Source: Acidiferrobacterales bacterium (GTDB lineage Bacteria; Pseudomonadota; Gammaproteobacteria; Acidiferrobacterales; SPGG2). From it: DNA of 64,000 nt. The notes beneath the pieces are model-generated. The model did not search any database. It was given only the letters and a program-made list of their open reading frames with translations, and was not told where the DNA came from. Location: NCBI GenBank assembly GCA_046760105.1, contig JBHIDJ010000008.1:1712-65711 (forward strand), given 5' to 3'. Positions 22,598 through 57,620 of the stretch are shown here, piece after piece. A program made the translations under genes and the position numbers. Each line of letters begins with the position of its first letter. Position 1 is the first letter of the stretch.

Positions 22598-22610
22598 AAA
22601 ACGACACAGC

Positions 22611-22735
22611 TAGTAGCAAGTTACAAGTAGCAAGTAGCGAGGAGAAAGCAAAAAAGCTTCAGACTCGCCGGAGATTTCCCTTGATCCTTGCTACTTCGCA
22701 CTTACCTACTCGCAGTTAATTACTTGCTACTCGGG
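22611..22735. repeat. Heptad-array palindromic element, copy A
   Basis: Left arm: TAGCAAG TTACAAG TAGCAAG TAGCGAG GAGAAAG (22614-22648). Right arm: CTTGCTA CTTCGCA CTTACCTA CTCGCAG TTAATTA CTTGCTA CTCGGG (22687-22735). The arms are mutually reverse-complementary. Confidence 0.85.
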
Positions 22736-25402: not shown

Positions 25403-25501
25403 CAGATGCAAGATACAAGTAAAAAGATACAGGTTACGCTTTCAATGGTATTCGTCCTATTGAGGTTTTGCTTGTACCTTGGACCTTGAATCTTGTATCT
25501 G
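25403..25501. repeat. Heptad-array palindromic element, copy B (diverged)
   Basis: Left arm: ATGCAAG ATACAAG TAAAAAG ATACAGG (25406-25433). Right arm: CTTGTAC CTTGGAC CTTGAAT CTTGTAT (25471-25498), in perfect 7-nt phase. The right arm lies inside the last 14 codons of lon. Confidence 0.7.
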
Positions 25502-29303: not shown

Positions 29304-29513
29304 CCCGCATCGGCCGACAAGCGGCTGTTATTAAAGCCCGATGCCGCGCCACCCCTGGGTGCACTAGAAAATCCTCCCCAGCCTCTCGCCGCGATCATAC
29401 AAGCCCTTTGCACGTGCACGCATTGCTGGCACGCACACGACCCTGTCAACCGCAGCCCGCGACGGGCGTTAAAGCATATGAAAATAGCGGAAACGATGTC
29501 TGGAGGTACAAGC

Positions 29514-30077
29514 ATGACGACGAAAACATGGTTTGCAGCAGCTTTGTTGGTGTTGGTCACCGCAGCGCCCGTGTTTGCCGATGACGGTGATCGCGGAGAG
29601 TGGATCGAAGACCGCCTGGACCGGCGCGGTGACCGCATCGATCAACGCCTGGACCGCCGTGGCGAGCGGATTGATGAGCGGTTGGATCGGCGTGGTGAGC
29701 GCATCGATGGGCGTCTAAATCACCGCGGCGAACGCGTTGACAAGCGCCTCGACCGACGCGGTGAATCTATCAATGACCGTCTCGACCGCAAGGCCGAGCG
29801 CGCAGAAGAAGCCGGCAAGCAAGGTTTGGCAAAGCGGCTCGACCGCAAGGGCGATCGGATTGAACATCGATATGACCGCAAGGGCGACCGTGTCGAGAAC
29901 CGGCTGGATCGGCGCGGTGATCGGGTGAACGCACGCCTGGACCGGCGTGGTGATCGAATCGAGAATAGGCTCGATCGCCGTGGTGATCACGTTGACCACG
30001 GTTTGGATCGTCGGGGCGAACGTGCTCATCGCCGCGTAGATCGGCATCGTAGGCACGGGGGTGCCCGTCGCCGGTAG
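29514..30077 (+). CDS. Secreted Arg/Asp-rich protein built of 11-residue tandem repeats
   Basis: ATG at 29514 preceded by GGAGG. The signal peptide is MTTKTWFAAALLVLVTAAPVFA. About 12 units of xRLDRRG(D/E)R(I/V)(D/E/N) follow (33-nt period, 29610-30050), with one 19-residue insert. Confidence 0.7.
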   Translation: MTTKTWFAAALLVLVTAAPVFADDGDRGEWIEDRLDRRGDRIDQRLDRRGERIDERLDRRGERIDGRLNHRGERVDKRLDRRGESINDRLDRKAERAEEAGKQGLAKRLDRKGDRIEHRYDRKGDRVENRLDRRGDRVNARLDRRGDRIENRLDRRGDHVDHGLDRRGERAHRRVDRHRRHGGARRR

Positions 30078-31847: not shown

Positions 31848-32213
31848 TTAGCGCTTGGCGGCGCTGCCACGGACTTCGTCAGCGGGATATTTTTGTTCGT
31901 TTAGTTCGAGCTTGCGCCATGCTGAATCGAACAAATCTATACCTAGCTTGTCTGCAAGGCGTAACAGATAGATGAGTACGTCTGCCATTTCAAGGGCCAC
32001 CTGTGCCTTCTTATCCGGCGCTAAAGTGAAGCTTTCTTGCTCCGTTAGCCATTGGAAGTGTTCAACCAACTCGGCCGCCTCGACACTCAGTGCCATGGAC
32101 AAGTTCTTTGGCGAATGAAACTTATCCCAGTCACGCGCTTGTACGAATTCCCGCAGCTGCTGGATAAGCTGATCAATCGTTACAGCGTTACCCCGCAGCT
32201 CGCCCGATTTCAC
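31848..32213 (-). CDS. MazG-like nucleotide pyrophosphohydrolase
   Basis: 121 aa. [29 protein letters not shown]...[20 protein letters not shown] is the all-alpha NTP-PPase pattern. Confidence 0.8.
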
Positions 32214-33601
32214 TTGTCCATCTCGGCTAGCCGCTGGCGTGCGCGCTTGATCGCAGCCCGTACCTGCGCCGGCGCCGTACCGCCTACATGATCGCGTGCG
32301 TTCACTGAACCCTGAAGCGTCAGCACATCAAATACATCCTTGTCGATTCTCGCGCACACGCTCTGCAATTCTGCCAGCTCCATTTCGGAAAGATCTTTGC
32401 CTGTTTCAAGACCGTGACGTACGAGCTTGCCAACGATCTCGTGGGCATCACGAAACGCCACCCCTTTGCGTACGAGGTAGTCGGCAAGATCGGTGGCAGT
32501 AGGGAATCCCCGCTGCGCCGCGCGCAACAGCACATCGCGCTTCAATTCCATCGTGCTGATGAGCGCGGTAAACGCCTCCACGCAGGCAAGTGCTGTGTCG
32601 AGCGCGTCGAACAGCGGCTCCTTGTCTTCCTGATTGTCGCGGTTATAGGCCAGCGGTTGCGCCTTCATCAGCGTCAACAACGCCACGAGGTCGCCATTGA
32701 CCCGACCTGCTTTGCCGCGAATGAGCTCGGCGATGTCCGGGTTCTTTTTCTGCGGCATGATCGAAGATCCGGTACAAAAGGCATCTGCAAGCTCGATAAA
32801 ACCAAACGCACTGGATGCCCACAGCACCACCTCTTCGCAGAAACGAGACAGATGCGACATTAACAGCGCGATTGCTGACACAAACTCGATCGCAAAGTCC
32901 CGGTCCGATACAGCATCCAGGGAATTTTCCGCCGCTGCATCGAACCCCAGAAGCTTGGCCGTATACTCGCGGTCAATAGGGTACGTCGTACCCGCCAAGG
33001 CAGCTGCACCCAGTGGCATGATGTTAACGCGTACCCGACAATCCTTGAGGCGTGCATGGTCTCGCATGAGCATCTCGAGCCATGCCAACATATGGTGACC
33101 GAAAGTGATCGGTTGCGCGCTCTGCAGGTGTGTGAAACCGGGCATTATTGTTTCTGCCTCGCGTTGCCCGATGTCGAGTAGCACCTTTTGCAGCCGCGCG
33201 ATTACCGCGTACAACGTGTCGATGCCATCGCGCAAGAAAAGTCGCATATCAGTGGCCACCTGATCGTTACGGGAACGGCCGGTGTGCAGTTTCTTTCCGA
33301 CCTCGCCGATGCGATCGATGAGTCTCGCCTCGATGTTCATGTGCAGGTCTTCCAGTTCAGCGCTCCAAGCGAACTGACCGGAATCGATCTCTGCCTTGAT
33401 CACCTCCAGGGCATCGACAATTGTTTTGCACTCCTTTTCTGTAAGCACGTTCACGTGTGCCAACATGCGGGCGTGTGCGATAGAAGCAGCAATATCATAG
33501 GCGTAGAGACGCTGATCAAAACCAACCGAGGCGGTAAAGGTATCAACGAGGCGATCTGTAGGGTCGGCGAAGCGGCCGCTCCAGGGCTTTTCCTTGGGCA
33601 T
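32210..33601 (-). CDS. argH: Argininosuccinate lyase
   Basis: 463 aa with [17 protein letters not shown] and the fumarate-lyase signature [12 protein letters not shown]. Confidence 0.95.
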
Positions 33602-33843
33602 CAGTTAACTGGATTCTTGCTACACAATCGATGATCGTGCGGGCCATAAAACTGACAGTGGCACTACCGGGCATGCCCCGGCGCCGTGGCCACGCACCGC
33701 CCATCCGCAAACCCGCTCCGGCTGTCGGTAACTACCCCATGACGCGTTGTTGTCGCCCTGGTCCCGAGGTATTTTTATATCTTACCTGGCCCGGTTTGTC
33801 CTTTTGTGCACCCCCACCCCGAATACCGGACCAGGGTTTTCAG

Positions 33844-33872
33844 CCCCCCAGCCCCATGGGGGGTTTTTTATT
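33844..33872 (+). terminator. Intrinsic-terminator-like hairpin with no annotated upstream gene
   Basis: CCCCCC-agccccat-GGGGGG followed by TTTTTTATT. It is preceded by a second long hairpin, CCTGGCCCGG...CCGGACCAGG (33785-33835). Confidence 0.4.
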
Positions 33873-34121
33873 GCGCCACAGGGTGAAAAGTATACATGAC
33901 CAGACCCGTCAGACGAATGGGAATATTGTCTATTATTTATCCCATAGACAGTCATGGAAGCTACCGTCATGAGGCAACCCTTGCGGCGGCGTGGGGCGCG
34001 CGAGTGCTGGCGGTGGCCGGCCGGCCCGCGGGTCTCAAGAATACATAAACTGATCTGCCTTGCGAGTGCGCAGACCTTTGCGTAACAATAAGCGCTTGTT
34101 TTTCCGGGCTCCTAGCCACGT

Positions 34122-45780: not shown

Positions 45781-46644
45781 ATGCGTAGTCGGTGGCTGTT
45801 GAACCTGGGTCTGCTGGCGTTAGTGATGTTGCTCGTCGTTGTCGTCCTCTATGAGGACGGTGCAGACAACGCACAACCGAACGCACCGTTAACAACGCTA
45901 GACACGGAGAAGATCAACAGCATACGCATTCAAAAAGAAAACAACGATCAGCTTCGATTGGAAAGAAACAAAGACGGATGGTTTTTGGTAGCACCTCTGC
46001 GGGCGCGGGCTGATCGTTTGCGCGTACAAAGCTTGCTGCGTCTCGCCATTGCCAGCAGCGAGCTGCGCCGTCCGGCCACCAGCGATAATATCGGTAAGTA
46101 TGGCCTCGACAAGCCAAAGGCGCGTGTGTGGTTTGATAACGAGGAAATCCAACTGGGAACACACCACCCGTTCAAGAAGGCTCGATACGTACTTTACAAC
46201 GGCGAGCTACACTTGGTTCGCGCACTTGATTTCGATCCGGCATCACAGCGGCACACCGATCTTATCAGCCACCGCCTATTTGCAGAGGGCCGGCGACCGG
46301 TGACTTTTGAGTTGCCAGAGCTGACGTTGCGGCGAACGGATGGGAAGTGGCAGATGCGGCCCGCGAATGACGACATCACGCCTGACCGCATCAATCAACT
46401 GGCAGATGAATGGCGCTTTGCGCGCGCACTGGCGGTCGAGCGCTACGGCGGGCAAGACGTACGTGGCTGGATCCGCGTAACACTCAAAGATGTAAGCGGC
46501 GGCGAAAAGAACGACCAACAACTCGTTGAGCTGGGCATCCTGAGCGACGATCCGGGGTTTGTCCTCTACCGCAAAGACGAAGGGCTCACATACCGGTTCA
46601 CCGAGCATACGGGGAAGCGGCTAATGAATATAAAAAGCGAGTAG
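45781..46644 (+). CDS. DUF4340 domain protein
   Basis: 287 aa with an N-terminal TM helix. It sits downstream of gldG-like, the typical DUF4340 context. Its stop codon TAG is the first heptad of repeat C. Confidence 0.65.
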   Translation: MRSRWLLNLGLLALVMLLVVVVLYEDGADNAQPNAPLTTLDTEKINSIRIQKENNDQLRLERNKDGWFLVAPLRARADRLRVQSLLRLAIASSELRRPATSDNIGKYGLDKPKARVWFDNEEIQLGTHHPFKKARYVLYNGELHLVRALDFDPASQRHTDLISHRLFAEGRRPVTFELPELTLRRTDGKWQMRPANDDITPDRINQLADEWRFARALAVERYGGQDVRGWIRVTLKDVSGGEKNDQQLVELGILSDDPGFVLYRKDEGLTYRFTEHTGKRLMNIKSE

Positions 46645-46798
46645 CAAGTAGCAAGAAAAACAACTAAAGGCAAAGTTGATCGATTTGACGTCTTTGCTGG
46701 ACTTTACCGCTGTGACTTAGAACTGCTACCGGACGTACCAGTATTCCTAACTTGTTACTTTCACTTGCTACTTGTCACTTGCTCCTTGCAACTTGTTT
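46639..46798. repeat. Heptad-array palindromic element, copy C (asymmetric)
   Basis: Left arm: GAG TAGCAAG TAGCAAG (46639-46655). Right arm: CTTGTTA CTTTCA CTTGCTA CTTGTCA CTTGCTC CTTGCAA CTTGTTT (46751-46798). The 95-nt spacer has its own hairpin GCAAAG..CTTTGC (46670-46697). Confidence 0.85.
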
Positions 46799-46805
46799 AT
46801 AAGAA

Positions 46806-47621
46806 ATGCCCGAACTACCCGAGATTGAAACCACGCGTCGCGGTATCGCCCCACATGTAATCGGGCAGCCCGTTGATGCGGTCGTGGTAAGGCAGCGGCA
46901 ATTGCGTTGGCCGGTACCCAAGGCACTGATGCGAGAGCTACCTGGCCAGACAATCGAGTCCGTCGATCGTCGCGGCAAATACCTGTTGCTCAACACAGCC
47001 ATCGGTAGCGTCATCTTGCACCTCGGTATGTCCGGCAGTCTGCGCATCGTGCCGCAAGCAAAAACACCGGAGAAATATGATCATGTGGATCTGGTATTCG
47101 CCAACGGTGATTGTCTACGGCTGCGGGACCCACGCCGCTTCGGGGCGGTATTGTGGACCAAGGGCGATGTCACACGACACCGGCTACTCGCGAACATCGG
47201 TCCCGACCCACTCGCACACAGCTTTGGCGGCGACTATCTGTATCGTAAATCGCGCGGGCGCACCCGTGCGATACGGGACTTGTTGATCGACAGTCGCATC
47301 GTGGCGGGCGTTGGAAACATTTACGCGAATGAGGCACTGTACGGCGCCGGCATCCACCCACGGCGTGCCGCCGGGCGTATCAGCCGTCGGCGCTATCAAC
47401 GGCTCACACAAGCGATCCGTACGACCCTGAAACGTGCGATCGCCGCCGGCGGCACCACACTGCGCGACTTTCGTGGCGCCAGCGGCAATCCCGGCTACTT
47501 CCAGCTCACCATGCAGGTCTACGGTCGGGAGGGGGAGCCCTGTCGACGGTGCCGACGCCCGATTCGGGCCGCCCCGTTGGGGGGACGGCGGGTGTTCTAT
47601 TGTTCCCGGTGTCAGTTGTAA
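46806..47621 (+). CDS. mutM: Formamidopyrimidine-DNA glycosylase
   Basis: It starts MPELPEIETTRRG and ends with the zinc finger CRRC..CSRCQ. Confidence 0.95.
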   Translation: MPELPEIETTRRGIAPHVIGQPVDAVVVRQRQLRWPVPKALMRELPGQTIESVDRRGKYLLLNTAIGSVILHLGMSGSLRIVPQAKTPEKYDHVDLVFANGDCLRLRDPRRFGAVLWTKGDVTRHRLLANIGPDPLAHSFGGDYLYRKSRGRTRAIRDLLIDSRIVAGVGNIYANEALYGAGIHPRRAAGRISRRRYQRLTQAIRTTLKRAIAAGGTTLRDFRGASGNPGYFQLTMQVYGREGEPCRRCRRPIRAAPLGGRRVFYCSRCQL

Positions 47622-51526: not shown

Positions 51527-51536
51527 ATGCGCACAG

Positions 51537-51629
51537 CTTCAAGCTTCAAGTAGCAAGAAAAAACAAGAAAAGAAACTCGAACTCGGTCTCCTTGCTACTC
51601 GGGACTTCGCGCTTGCTACTTGCCACGTG

Positions 51630-51632
<3 letters not shown>
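51537..51632. repeat. Heptad-array palindromic element, copy D
   Basis: Left arm: CTTCAAG CTTCAAG TAGCAAG (51537-51557), followed by an A-rich spacer. Right arm: CTTGCTA CTCGGGA CTTCGCG CTTGCTA CTTGCCA CGTGCTA (51591-51632), six units in phase. Confidence 0.85.
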
Positions 51633-52431
<799 letters not shown>

Positions 52432-55864: not shown

Positions 55865-56815
55865 GTGCCGCTCTTCGGCAAGCCTACAGCTACTGACCAT
55901 ACCGAGCCGCGTGGCCTGCTCGGCCGACTCACTCGGCAACCCCTCGGTGAGCGTCTCACCGACCTATTCTTAGGCAAACGCGTCATCAATGATGACATTC
56001 TCGAAGAACTGGAAACGCTCCTACTCACCGCGGACGTCGGTGTCGAAGCCACCAGGGCCTTGATCGCGGATATCAGCGCGCGGCTTGACCGTAAGGAGCT
56101 GTCCGATGGCCGTGCCGCATACTCTCAGCTAAGACAGAGTATGCTTGAAATCGTTCAGCCCTGCAGCCGGCCGCTGGTCATCCCGGACTCGGTTCGCCCG
56201 TTCGTCATCATGGTGGTCGGGGTGAACGGGGTCGGCAAGACCACGACCATTGGCAAGCTTGCACAGCGGCTGTTGAATGCAGGCTTGCGCGTCATGATCG
56301 CTGCCGCCGATACCTTTCGTGCCGCTGCTATCGAGCAGTTGAAGAGCTGGGGCGAGCGTGCCGGTGTCCCTGTCATTGCCCAACACACCGGCGCCGATGC
56401 CGCTGCCGTGGCGCACGACGCCTTCAACGCCGCGCGTGCCCGTCAGCACGACGTGCTGATCGTGGATACCGCCGGGCGCCAGCACACCAATCTCGGGCTC
56501 ATGGACGAACTCAAAAAGATCAAACGTGTGCTTAACAAAATTGATCCGCATGCGCCACACGAAGTGCTGTTGATCCTGGATGCGGTGACCGGCCAGAACG
56601 CACTCTCACAGTTCGATCATTTTCACAATGCTGTGGGCGTAACCGGCCTATGTACGACGAAGCTTGACGGGACGGCAAAGGGCGGCATCCTGATCGCGCT
56701 GGCAAAGAAGGCGGGTCTTCCTATTCGCTATATCGGCGTCGGCGAAGCTCTGGATGACCTGATCGACTTCAATGCGGAAGAGTTTGTGGATGCGCTAATA
56801 CCTAAAACGGAGTAA
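55865..56815 (+). CDS. ftsY: Signal recognition particle receptor FtsY (short form without acidic A domain)
   Basis: GTG start, 316 aa, with an NG domain carrying GVNGVGKTTTIGK, DTAGR and TKLDGTAKGG. Confidence 0.9.
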   Translation: MPLFGKPTATDHTEPRGLLGRLTRQPLGERLTDLFLGKRVINDDILEELETLLLTADVGVEATRALIADISARLDRKELSDGRAAYSQLRQSMLEIVQPCSRPLVIPDSVRPFVIMVVGVNGVGKTTTIGKLAQRLLNAGLRVMIAAADTFRAAAIEQLKSWGERAGVPVIAQHTGADAAAVAHDAFNAARARQHDVLIVDTAGRQHTNLGLMDELKKIKRVLNKIDPHAPHEVLLILDAVTGQNALSQFDHFHNAVGVTGLCTTKLDGTAKGGILIALAKKAGLPIRYIGVGEALDDLIDFNAEEFVDALIPKTE

Positions 56816-56941
56816 CAAGTAGCAAGCATGATGTAACAAGGAATAGCCAGATGGGGTTCACCAGCTTGTCTTTCGCGTCCCGTTGCTTGCTGCTACTTGC
56901 TACTCACCCCTTGCCACTTGTAACTTGTAACTTGCTACTCG
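56810..56941. repeat. Heptad-array palindromic element, copy E (between ftsY and ftsE)
   Basis: Left arm: GAG TAACAAG TAGCAAG CATGATG TAACAAG. Right arm: eight in-phase heptads GTTGCTT GCTGCTA CTTGCTA CTCACCC CTTGCCA CTTGTAA CTTGTAA CTTGCTA (56882-56937) plus CTC. Confidence 0.9.
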
Positions 56942-56945
56942 AATC

Positions 56946-57620
56946 ATGATTGACTTCAACAATGTCTCGAAGCGCTATCCCGGTGGTCACGATGCCCTCA
57001 AGAATGTCAGTTTCAGTCTCGCGCGAGAAGAGATGGCACTGCTCACCGGCCATTCCGGCGCCGGCAAGAGCACGCTGCTAAAGCTCATTACCTTGATCGA
57101 GCGGCCCACGCGAGGACAGGCCATCGTTAACAATAAGAACCTTACGCGCGTTTCACGCCGACGGGTCCCGAACTTCCGCCGCGACATTGGTATTGTGTTT
57201 CAAGATTACAAGCTCTTGTACGACCGCACTGCTTTCGACAATGTTGCGCTGCCGTTGGTTGTTGCAGGATTGCATCACAAGGAGATCGGCCGGCGCGTGC
57301 GGGCAGCGTTGGACAAAGTCGGTCTTTTGAGAAAGGAGCGTGCCTACCCCATCACGCTGTCCGGCGGCGAGCAACAGCGGATTAGCATTGCCCGCGCGGT
57401 TGTCCATAAACCCGCTTTGCTGCTGGCGGATGAACCGACGGGCAATCTGGACCAGGCATTATCCGATGACATCATGGACCTGTTTCACCAATTCAACCAG
57501 GTAGGTGTCACCGTCCTGATCGCCACCCACGATCAACGCCAGATCCAACGGTTGGGCGGACGCGTACTGGAGCTCCGGCAAGGCGAGATGATCCATGACA
57601 CGGGAGCGGCCACCGTATGA
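56946..57620 (+). CDS. ftsE: Cell division ATP-binding protein FtsE
   Basis: 224 aa with GHSGAGKST, LSGGEQQR and LLLADEPTGNLD. No Shine-Dalgarno; the ATG lies 5 nt after repeat E. Confidence 0.95.
   Translation: MIDFNNVSKRYPGGHDALKNVSFSLAREEMALLTGHSGAGKSTLLKLITLIERPTRGQAIVNNKNLTRVSRRRVPNFRRDIGIVFQDYKLLYDRTAFDNVALPLVVAGLHHKEIGRRVRAALDKVGLLRKERAYPITLSGGEQQRISIARAVVHKPALLLADEPTGNLDQALSDDIMDLFHQFNQVGVTVLIATHDQRQIQRLGGRVLELRQGEMIHDTGAATV

Follow-up and report, generated by a model that had tools for sequence, protein, structure and literature searches.

What is the tandem array of seven-nucleotide units that stands just ahead of ftsE in this Acidiferrobacterales contig (JBHIDJ010000008.1), and does it serve the translation of that gene? 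The window (the whole 64,000-nt stretch of DNA that was analysed) contains five elements of this kind, E1 to E5, each made of an arm of CAAG heptads, an unrelated spacer and an arm of CTTG heptads. The array under study (56882-56948) is the start-proximal arm of E5, which fills the 130-nt ftsY-ftsE gap. An earlier reading of the letters (the original prediction) had described the five copies and proposed that pairing of the two arms joins the stop codon of the upstream gene to a downstream start without a Shine-Dalgarno (SD) sequence, as a device for termination-reinitiation across 100-160 nt or as a standby site; a mobile element that targets stop codons and displaced the native initiation regions was its alternative. 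We find that the array is very probably one arm of a dispersed "heptad foldback", and that it falls in a described class of intergenic heptamer inverted pairs located by stops and starts. The element is a gene-3'-end element, and the meeting of stop and start is a consequence of gene-end foldback in short co-directional spacers.

Heptad foldbacks are located at gene ends

One single-arm pattern and two hairpin patterns were scanned against 185,579 species genomes, with less than one chance match expected for the hairpin pattern. From the matches listed we surveyed 156 CAAGNNN and 134 TAGCAAG hairpins (about 290). Genes were taken from crude longest open reading frame (ORF) calls, by which 233 hairpins were classified by junction: 137 were co-directional, 84 convergent and 12 divergent. 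The counts by unit type and for the background were:

CAAGNNN hairpins: co-directional 74, convergent 38, divergent 8
TAGCAAG hairpins: co-directional 63, convergent 46, divergent 4
Element-free gene pairs at the same loci (background): co-directional 442, convergent 145, divergent 125

The junction classes of the CAAGNNN hairpins differ from the element-free background (p = 0.001). Elements overlap a stop codon or lie no more than about 20 nt from one, irrespective of the direction of the neighbouring gene, with a median of 10 nt from the stop to the first perfect core, and convergent pairs show a short stop distance on both sides (10 and 10, 3 and 3, 8 and 9). The median distance from arm to start is 18-24 nt, and both flanks are ≤20 nt in 28 of the 74 co-directional CAAGNNN junctions (about 38%). 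Stops are near the arms in convergent and co-directional junctions alike, which argues for anchoring at gene ends and not for stop-to-start specificity. An arm is placed at whichever side a gene ends; the element fills convergent and co-directional junctions and avoids divergent ones.

The TAG-carrying arrays explain how a stop codon comes to lie inside an arm. A TAG every 7 nt closes all three frames within three units (21 nt), and therefore any ORF entering the array ends there. The array TAG is the host stop in 65 of 171 stop-side flanks, and a further 72 stops are located 1-21 nt upstream of TAG arrays. Among the 65 flanks, heptads 1, 2 and 3 hold the host stop 25, 20 and 20 times; a "first heptad" register was dismissed on this split, and the position of the stop looks like a frame lottery, as expected if the reading frame meets the array randomly. 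For annotation, about 38% of stop-adjacent flanks of TAG, TAA or TGA units take an array triplet as the host stop, and a few C-terminal residues are then array-encoded.

Anatomy of the five elements in the window

The pattern CTTGN3CTTGN3CTTG (≤1 mismatch) had 18 matches in the window against 0.27 expected, and ACTTGCTACTTG (≤2 mismatches) had 23 against 2.9; no shuffle equalled either count. Tandem Repeats Finder (TRF) placed the array ahead of ftsE at 56891-56939 (period 7, 7 copies) and found essentially no period-7 arrays elsewhere in the window. The unit is an invariant CAAG plus three variable bases, mostly TAGCAAG in this Acidiferrobacterales-like genome. Arm lengths and unit numbers differ at every locus, a terminal motif recurs among the copies (CGAGTAGCAAG ... 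CTTGCTACTCG), and the five spacers have nothing in common beyond one 8-mer. All five elements occupy co-directional stop-to-start gaps, at lysA→methyltransferase (E1), lon→saccharopine-dehydrogenase-like (E2), DUF4340→mutM (E3), ferredoxin→ggt (E4) and ftsY→ftsE (E5), with gene identities from Pfam. Their parts are listed below; L124 is the best relative of the window.

E5 stop-proximal arm, 56810-56840, plus strand: GAG-TAA-CAAG-TAG-CAAG-CAT-GATG-TAA-CAAG, with the last ftsY codon and its TAA (56813-15) inside; conserved in the L124 ortholog
E5 spacer, 56841-56885, plus strand: 45 nt, with no relation to the other four spacers; differs from L124 by a 25-nt indel
E5 start-proximal arm, 56886-56941, plus strand: ~8 CTTGNNN units, ftsE ATG (56946) 4-5 nt on; distal ~40 nt predicted to be mostly unpaired
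E3 stop-proximal arm, 46638-46655, plus strand: CGAG-TAG-CAAG-TAG-CAAG, with the DUF4340 stop TAG (46642-44) inside
E3 spacer, 46656-46749, plus strand: ~70-nt indel relative to L124
E3 start-proximal arm, 46750-46798, plus strand: six CTTG cores; mutM ATG at 46806
E1 stop-proximal arm, 22680-22733, minus strand: lysA GAG-TAG (cta 22727-29) inside; degenerate interior
E1 spacer, 22643-22679, minus strand
E1 start-proximal arm, 22610-22642, minus strand: methyltransferase ATG (cat 22595-97) ~13 nt downstream
E2 upstream arm, 25470-25501, minus strand: CAAG-ATT/GTC/GTA units without a stop triplet, within lon as its last 14 codons
E2 spacer, 25434-25469, minus strand: lon stop (cta 25457-59) inside
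E2 start-proximal arm, 25403-25433, minus strand: saccharopine-dehydrogenase-like ATG (cat 25373-75) ~27 nt downstream
E4 stop-proximal arm, 51590-51644, minus strand: ferredoxin stop (cta 51630-32) in a degenerate unit; the arm reaches ~12 nt into the ORF
E4 spacer, 51568-51589, minus strand
E4 start-proximal arm, 51534-51567, minus strand: ggt ATG (cat 51524-26) ~10 nt downstream

The layout described in the original prediction is present at all five loci. The stops of ftsY, DUF4340 and lysA lie in the array, each followed directly by CAAG, and the ferredoxin TAG lies in a degenerate heptad; the arm supplies the last 14 lon codons (in Pfam, Lon_C stops at residue 802 of 821) and the lon stop sits in the spacer. 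It was also correct that LysA, DUF4340 and FtsY all terminate in GAG-stop. These terminal Glu codons are there because the degenerate unit reads CGAG-TAG. The arm-to-start distances of about 5, 7, 10, 13 and 27 nt agree with those given earlier, and the ftsE and mutM starts are secured by conserved N-termini (MIDF... and MPELPEIE...).

Predicted folding of the arms

If the two arms pair end to end, the stop and the AUG should meet at the base of one stem. Predicted folds bring the AUG within 8-24 nt of the stem base for E1, E3 and E4, but not for E2 or for E5, the copy that raised the question:

E1: fold z-score -2.6, AUG 17 nt past the stem base
E2: fold z-score -1.7, AUG 27 nt past the stem base, lon stop in the loop
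E3: fold z-score -2.4, AUG 24 nt past the stem base
E4: fold z-score -1.6, AUG 8 nt past the stem base
E5: fold z-score -0.55, ~40 nt before the AUG mostly unpaired

The 5' arm of E5 (3-4 units) is predicted to pair with the proximal part of the ~8-unit 3' array, which takes 82% of the pairing probability of the arm. A register setting stop and AUG side by side would be 7.2 kcal/mol less favourable, and the 40 nt preceding the ftsE AUG are 74% unpaired in the prediction.

Shine-Dalgarno sequences next to the arms

All five downstream starts in the window lack an SD, as had been claimed, but the contrast with other genes is weak. An SD-like site is found in 7 of 12 independently called genes that do not adjoin an element (window 49.7-63 kb), and a crude whole-window estimate gives 11-24%; given this modest usage, five SD-less starts out of five correspond to only p ~0.01-0.2. 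The survey gave a similar picture, with an SD at 16-18% of starts ≤40 nt from an arm vs. 21-24% of other genes called alike (not significant). Spacing was the variable that mattered: none of the 40 starts with an arm ≤12 nt away has an SD, compared with 12 of 35 with an arm 21-40 nt away. Pseudomonas keeps a normal GGAG between arm and start, and other genera likewise keep an SD there. The ggt gene of L124, which has no element, carries GAGG at -14, and the window arm occupies the same position.

Loss of the SD is limited to copies with the arm ≤12 nt from the start, and we therefore take it to be a local effect, the arm standing where the SD would be. The second arm of an element in a co-directional junction inevitably falls on the initiation region of the next gene and can overwrite its SD. 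The alternative in the original prediction, a stop-codon element that displaced initiation regions, is thus nearer the evidence through the displaced GAGG of ggt; its form as a transposable element is not supported (see below). SD-less starts that abut an arm will be penalised by start-prediction tools. Separately, the ftsY, ferredoxin, rsmD-like and HAD genes of the window are SD-less without any element near, and SD usage in this genome looks modest.

Conservation of the junctions in relatives

L124, an Acidiferrobacterales metagenome-assembled genome (FtsE protein identity 85%), has CAAG/CTTG elements at the same ftsY-ftsE and DUF4340-mutM junctions and none at its ggt junction. At both shared junctions the arms align well with those of the window, whereas the spacers differ by 25- and ~70-nt indels. 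Close relatives without the element have an ftsY-ftsE spacer of only 3-40 nt that is SD-less, and ftsE was therefore probably translationally coupled already before the arrival of the element. No heptad copy-number change in E4 or E5 was seen among same-species metagenome contigs (99.9% identical).

In 6 of 14 proteobacterial relatives ftsY-ftsE holds a heptad array, with four unit types among them. Relatives at a greater distance show either such an SD-less spacer of 3-40 nt or, in the same place, inverted heptad or octad arrays of other units (GGAGTGA/TCACTCC, GAGGATT/AATCCTC and CACGGAAG). Arrays at this junction were located at about 7830-8076 in L131, about 4019-4404 in L132, about 9850-10000 in L136 and upstream of 10001 in L129 (four relatives). 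The ftsY-ftsE junction may be a hot spot, or it may hold an old element whose unit turned over. The GGAGTGA/TCACTCC array contains a nested CACGGAAG hairpin, and TAACTGA-like units were noticed at ftsY-ftsE in a Sedimenticola genome.

Distribution across bacteria and related units

The order CAAG arm, spacer, CTTG arm was found, among the matches listed, in Acidobacteriota, Bacteroidota, Chloroflexota, Planctomycetota, Actinomycetota, Gamma-, Beta- and Deltaproteobacteria and candidate phyla radiation (CPR) lineages, with Thiobacillus, Thioalkalivibrio, Halomonas and many Pseudomonas species among the genera. The polarity is strict: the CAAG arm comes first in 21 of the 22 pairs ascertained via a single arm (21:1), and at 9 loci vs. 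1 on viral contigs. The 4-nt core is invariant, and the other 3 nt vary inside single arrays. GACA and GTTCAAN units form the same architecture at a similar or higher frequency.

Could the order simply reflect a rule that the purine-rich arm always comes first? That rule fits the CAAG pairs, the published GGGAATC pairs, and the GGAGTGA, GTGAAAC and GAGGATT pairs; the GACA control gave 21 vs. 10, and purine-first is therefore not universal. We also dropped a "reversed GAAC" family of 101 matches, which proved to be (GTTCAAN)n...(NTTGAAC)n, that is, CAAG-type units with NNN = GTT.

Several carriers show further features. Identical TAGCAAG inverted pairs (L464-L581) are present at many loci per genome in Acidiferrobacterales, Muproteobacteria, Burkholderiales, Acidobacteriota, Actinomycetota, Nitrospirota, Ardenticatenaceae and Thermomicrobiales. 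Hairpins of (GTTCAAN)n ... (NTTGAAC)n are very dense in L367, L401, L370, L432 and about 100 other contigs of the viral collection, with as many as 6 sites within 13 kb and 4 within 2.8 kb, and some are preceded by a short GC hairpin, gccccttcggggc. In L320 (196-411) two complete CAAG/CTTG hairpins stand in tandem, each after the same ~25-nt module gaaaaggccCAAGtttcaacatt, which looks like duplication of a whole hairpin together with its flank. In a Pseudomonas putida strain (L204, 4430-4465) a terminator-like hairpin, ccccggccacgcaccgggg followed by tttt, lies directly upstream of a CAAGCTG hairpin, and there the heptad hairpin is additional to the terminator, not a replacement for it.

Comparison with known repeats

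The closest described class is the (GGGANTN)n repeat of Xanthomonas, with about 186 sites per genome and 70-75 convergent inverted pairs (Rehm et al., 2015; PMC4692102). Its GGGAATC unit follows stops by 0-50 nt on the coding strand, in some cases overlapping the stop, and precedes starts by 0-50 nt on the non-coding strand. Convergent placement accounts for 16% and divergent for 7-8%; the repeats are transcribed, and no function was assigned to them (PMC4692102). Sites are conserved between species with variable length and sequence, the core is positions 1-4 and 6, and Nostoc has a counterpart in GGGGA(C/T)T heptameric repeats (PMC4692102). The CAAG elements share with this class the 7-nt units in tandem, conserved in a core and variable elsewhere, the convergent opposite-strand arrays close together, the unit near stops with its complement near starts, and the under-representation of divergent junctions. 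They differ in having no G-tracts, in spanning many phyla where GGGAATC is confined to one genus, and in TAG-, TAA- or TGA-carrying forms that supply the stop codon of the host gene. Since CAAGNNN has no G runs, the G-quadruplex reading offered for Xanthomonas cannot apply.

Geobacter metallireducens has paired "global regulator binding sites", set on opposite strands a variable distance apart and numbering dozens of pairs in the genome (Aklujkar et al., 2009; PMC2700814). They consist of 3-5 tandem 7-9-nt repeats (GTTGCTYN, TCTCCGTS[Y], MTYCTGA), occur also inside operons (proB-proA), and were proposed to be IHF/HU sites; insertions of ISGme8 and ISGme9 lie a fixed distance away from similar paired repeats (PMC2700814). 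Opposite-strand pairs of tandem short units are common to both systems; the units are different, and the Geobacter periods include 8-9 nt as well as 7.

Repetitive extragenic palindromic (REP) units of enterobacteria and pseudomonads, present in hundreds of copies, are imperfect palindromes of 20-40 nt with a GTAG head that are mobilised by RAYT transposases; they stabilise the upstream mRNA, and many are located 1-20 nt after a stop. The heptad elements resemble REPs and BIMEs in being extragenic and hairpin-forming, biased to gene 3' ends, convergent or operon-internal, and rare between divergent genes. They differ in being built of heptad arms with unrelated spacers, and they are not known to be linked to a RAYT. 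As REP, BIME or REPIN palindromic units we rejected them: the arms are tandem 7-mers, and the GTAG in GTAGCAA is lineage-specific and absent from the CAAGCTN units of Pseudomonas. REPs <16 nt from a stop stall terminating ribosomes and lower upstream expression, as reported by Liang et al. (2015) according to its citation in PMC12306157.

TAACTGA heptamers of marine Beggiatoaceae, cyanobacteria and Bacteroidetes occur as 169 direct sets vs. 1 inverted, lie in forward orientation upstream of SD-poor starts, and have been given a proposed role in translation (MacGregor, 2015; PMC4679880). These and the cyanobacterial STRR heptamers are like the CAAG units 7 nt long, intergenic, multicopy, stop-triplet-containing and patchy across phyla, but TAACTGA forms almost only direct repeats whereas the CAAG elements are hairpin pairs tied to stops. 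Among the long simple repeats of prokaryotes heptamers are the most frequent, which has been ascribed to polymerase slippage (Mrazek, 2007, in the summary given in PMC4679880). Classical translational coupling, in which the upstream ribosome unfolds a structure, is resembled in tight junctions by a stop at the base of the stem and an SD-less start that closely follows the complementary strand; in the present elements stop and start are 100-160 nt apart, and the same element occurs also where there is nothing to couple.

Other classes were searched for. Rfam 15 gave 0 matches in the window at gathering thresholds and 0 in the flagged region at E up to 10, and in 12 other loci it returned only 6S RNA and the cspA thermoregulator, both away from elements. 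An intrinsic terminator was rejected, with no terminator-like match at E3-E5 and stems of 20-40 nt that are not G+C-rich; in the survey a T-rich window follows only 79 of 308 arms, and most arms have no U-tract. A promoter consensus scan across E3-E5 gave no sites above chance level and, on the relevant strand, no internal promoter. When 634 flanking ORFs (8-20-kb genome fragments) were clustered all against all, only ABC ATPases and SRP GTPases emerged, with no transposase or DNA-binding family near the elements. Literature searches by literal sequence and keyword found no description of CAAG heptad hairpins.

What the elements may do

Our best explanation as a whole, a gene-end heptad foldback acting in a REP-like way, is tentative and falls a little short of an even chance. 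Its functional part, a transcribed hairpin at the stop codon comparable to a REP with coupling preserved as a by-product, is the best reading of the mechanism and is somewhat less probable still. Slippage and template switching between the arms would generate the arrays and maintain their similarity in the DNA. Transcripts of the flanking genes would include the element, whose long hairpin at the stop could block 3' exonucleases, divide the operon mRNA into segments and hinder ribosomes as they terminate. Where the junction is tight, as at ftsY-ftsE, a ribosome positioned on the stop would open the stem base and free the G-poor, pyrimidine-rich leader of the SD-less downstream gene. Coupling to a downstream gene that was already SD-less may be preserved in this way, because the terminating ribosome would melt the base; downstream translation would stay coupled to upstream translation as a by-product and not as the purpose.

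Several points weigh against this explanation. Transcription through the elements is assumed, and the fold z-scores are modest (-0.55 to -2.6). Stem mismatches in co-directional junctions, oriented by transcription, were G·U 31 vs. A·C 41 and 35 vs. 37 (66 vs. 78 together); selection on an RNA helix would favour G·U, and the lack of an excess thus gives no positive sign of selection on RNA structure. No arm-length asymmetry relative to gene direction was found in the surveyed hairpins, and the complementarity of the variable positions is weakly register-specific (68% vs. 52%). From the mismatches, arm lengths and register results together, the arms behave as two arrays of one unit family whose likeness is maintained in the DNA. 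Most of these observations would also suit an origin that is purely neutral or selfish.

That origin is a serious rival, which we nevertheless consider rather unlikely. It holds that the arrays are neutral or selfish DNA, grown by slippage and homogenised by template switching, that persists just past stops and away from promoters and has no function of its own. Contacts with stops and starts would be side effects of growth into short spacers. The lack of a G·U bias or of any dependence on gene direction agrees with this, as do the frame lottery of the stop heptad, the unrelated and indel-rich spacers and the element missing at the L124 ggt junction; the depletion of divergent junctions is as expected from promoter avoidance. 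Other cores (GACA, GTTCAAN, GGAGTGA, GAGGATT) build the same architecture, and the prevalence of heptamers has been put down to polymerase slippage in the work summarised in PMC4679880. Slippage alone is however insufficient for one unit family at many loci per genome and for an identical TAGCAAG in distant phyla. The arms are kept at two orthologous junctions while the spacers diverge, ftsY-ftsE carries arrays of four unit types in the 6 of 14 relatives, and a 4-nt core stays invariant while its three neighbours vary within an array; these points too speak against a neutral origin.

Also serious, and in our judgement unlikely, is the reading of the arms as protein-binding arrays in double- or single-stranded DNA, for an IHF/HU-like protein, for gyrase (as for BIMEs) or for a RAYT-like spreader, with the polarity reflecting dimerisation or cutting. 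It would account for the strict CAAG-then-CTTG order regardless of gene direction, for the lack of an RNA-strand signature and for an invariant 4-nt core at fixed 7-nt spacing. The units are lineage-specific, like REPs with their RAYTs, and the fixed-distance insertion of ISGme8 and ISGme9 by comparable G. metallireducens repeats (PMC2700814) is in its favour. On the other hand, the 634 clustered ORFs include no candidate protein, a 7-bp spacing sets successive sites on different faces of B-DNA, and placement 0-20 nt from stops is more naturally a constraint of transcript or translation.

The device of the original prediction, in which the stem joins stop and SD-less AUG for reinitiation or leaves a free arm as a standby site, is improbable as the purpose of the family. 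Its geometry is real and recurrent: it is tight in 4 of the 5 window copies and in the 28 of 74 co-directional junctions elsewhere. The secure ftsE and mutM starts are SD-less, the 40 starts within 12 nt of an arm all lack an SD, and the basal pairs holding the start-proximal units are exactly those that a ribosome on the stop would open; TAACTGA heptamers near SD-poor Beggiatoaceae starts have been read similarly (PMC4679880). The family as a whole does not fit. The convergent copies (84 of 233) have no downstream start, SDs at element-adjacent starts are not significantly rarer and are present where spacing allows, and the stop falls in heptad 1, 2 or 3 about equally. The preferred fold of E5 keeps stop and AUG apart, the lon stop is in the loop, and 4 of the 5 window gene pairs are functionally unrelated. 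Arm lengths show no asymmetry with gene direction, and the mismatches give no hint of selection on the RNA strand.

A pan-bacterial code read by a factor is conceivable from the fixed 7-nt period, the invariant 4-nt core, the fixed polarity and the wide distribution, and we give it only a slim chance: a conserved single-strand binder with a 7-nt footprint (cold-shock-domain or S1-like) would read the pyrimidine-rich CUUGNNN arm unit by unit and decide whether the hairpin forms. If true, it would mean a global gating of mRNA 3'-end stability, read-through and SD-less ribosome hand-over across 100-160 nt, as at ftsY-ftsE.

A miniature inverted-repeat transposable element inserting at stop codons is the least credible reading, since the terminal inverted arms of fixed polarity, the recurring terminal motif and an identical unit in distant phyla (which suggests horizontal spread) are offset by the lack of target-site duplications or flanking direct repeats, dissimilar interiors in the five copies, arm lengths and unit numbers that differ per locus, orthologous copies set apart by internal indels, not by a whole unit being present or absent, and no associated transposase among the flanking ORFs.

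Heptamers are the most over-represented long simple repeat of prokaryotes, known since 2007 and still without an accepted function. The CAAG family adds a G-tract-free case spread over many phyla, which removes the G-quadruplex explanation, and it sets three rules for any other: anchoring to stop codons on both sides, CAAG-then-CTTG polarity, and no RNA-strand signature in the mismatches. Cultivable carriers (Pseudomonas putida, P. fluorescens and P. kitaguniensis, Thiobacillus denitrificans DSM 12475, Thioalkalivibrio sulfidiphilus and Halomonas fontilapidosi) make the question experimentally approachable.

Minor repeats in the window

Two further repeats were noted in the window. The 29-nt gap at 33602-33630, between the divergent ORFs 32210-33601 (minus strand) and 33631-33972 (plus strand), holds one GTAGCAAG unit (...CTTGCTAC... 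on the plus strand); this GTAGCAAG unit is an isolated heptad and not part of an array. A 33/66-nt tandem repeat (2.6-3.2 copies, 71-75% matches) at 29592-29764 lies within a 199-aa ORF (29478-30077), which is the "repeat protein" of the original prediction.

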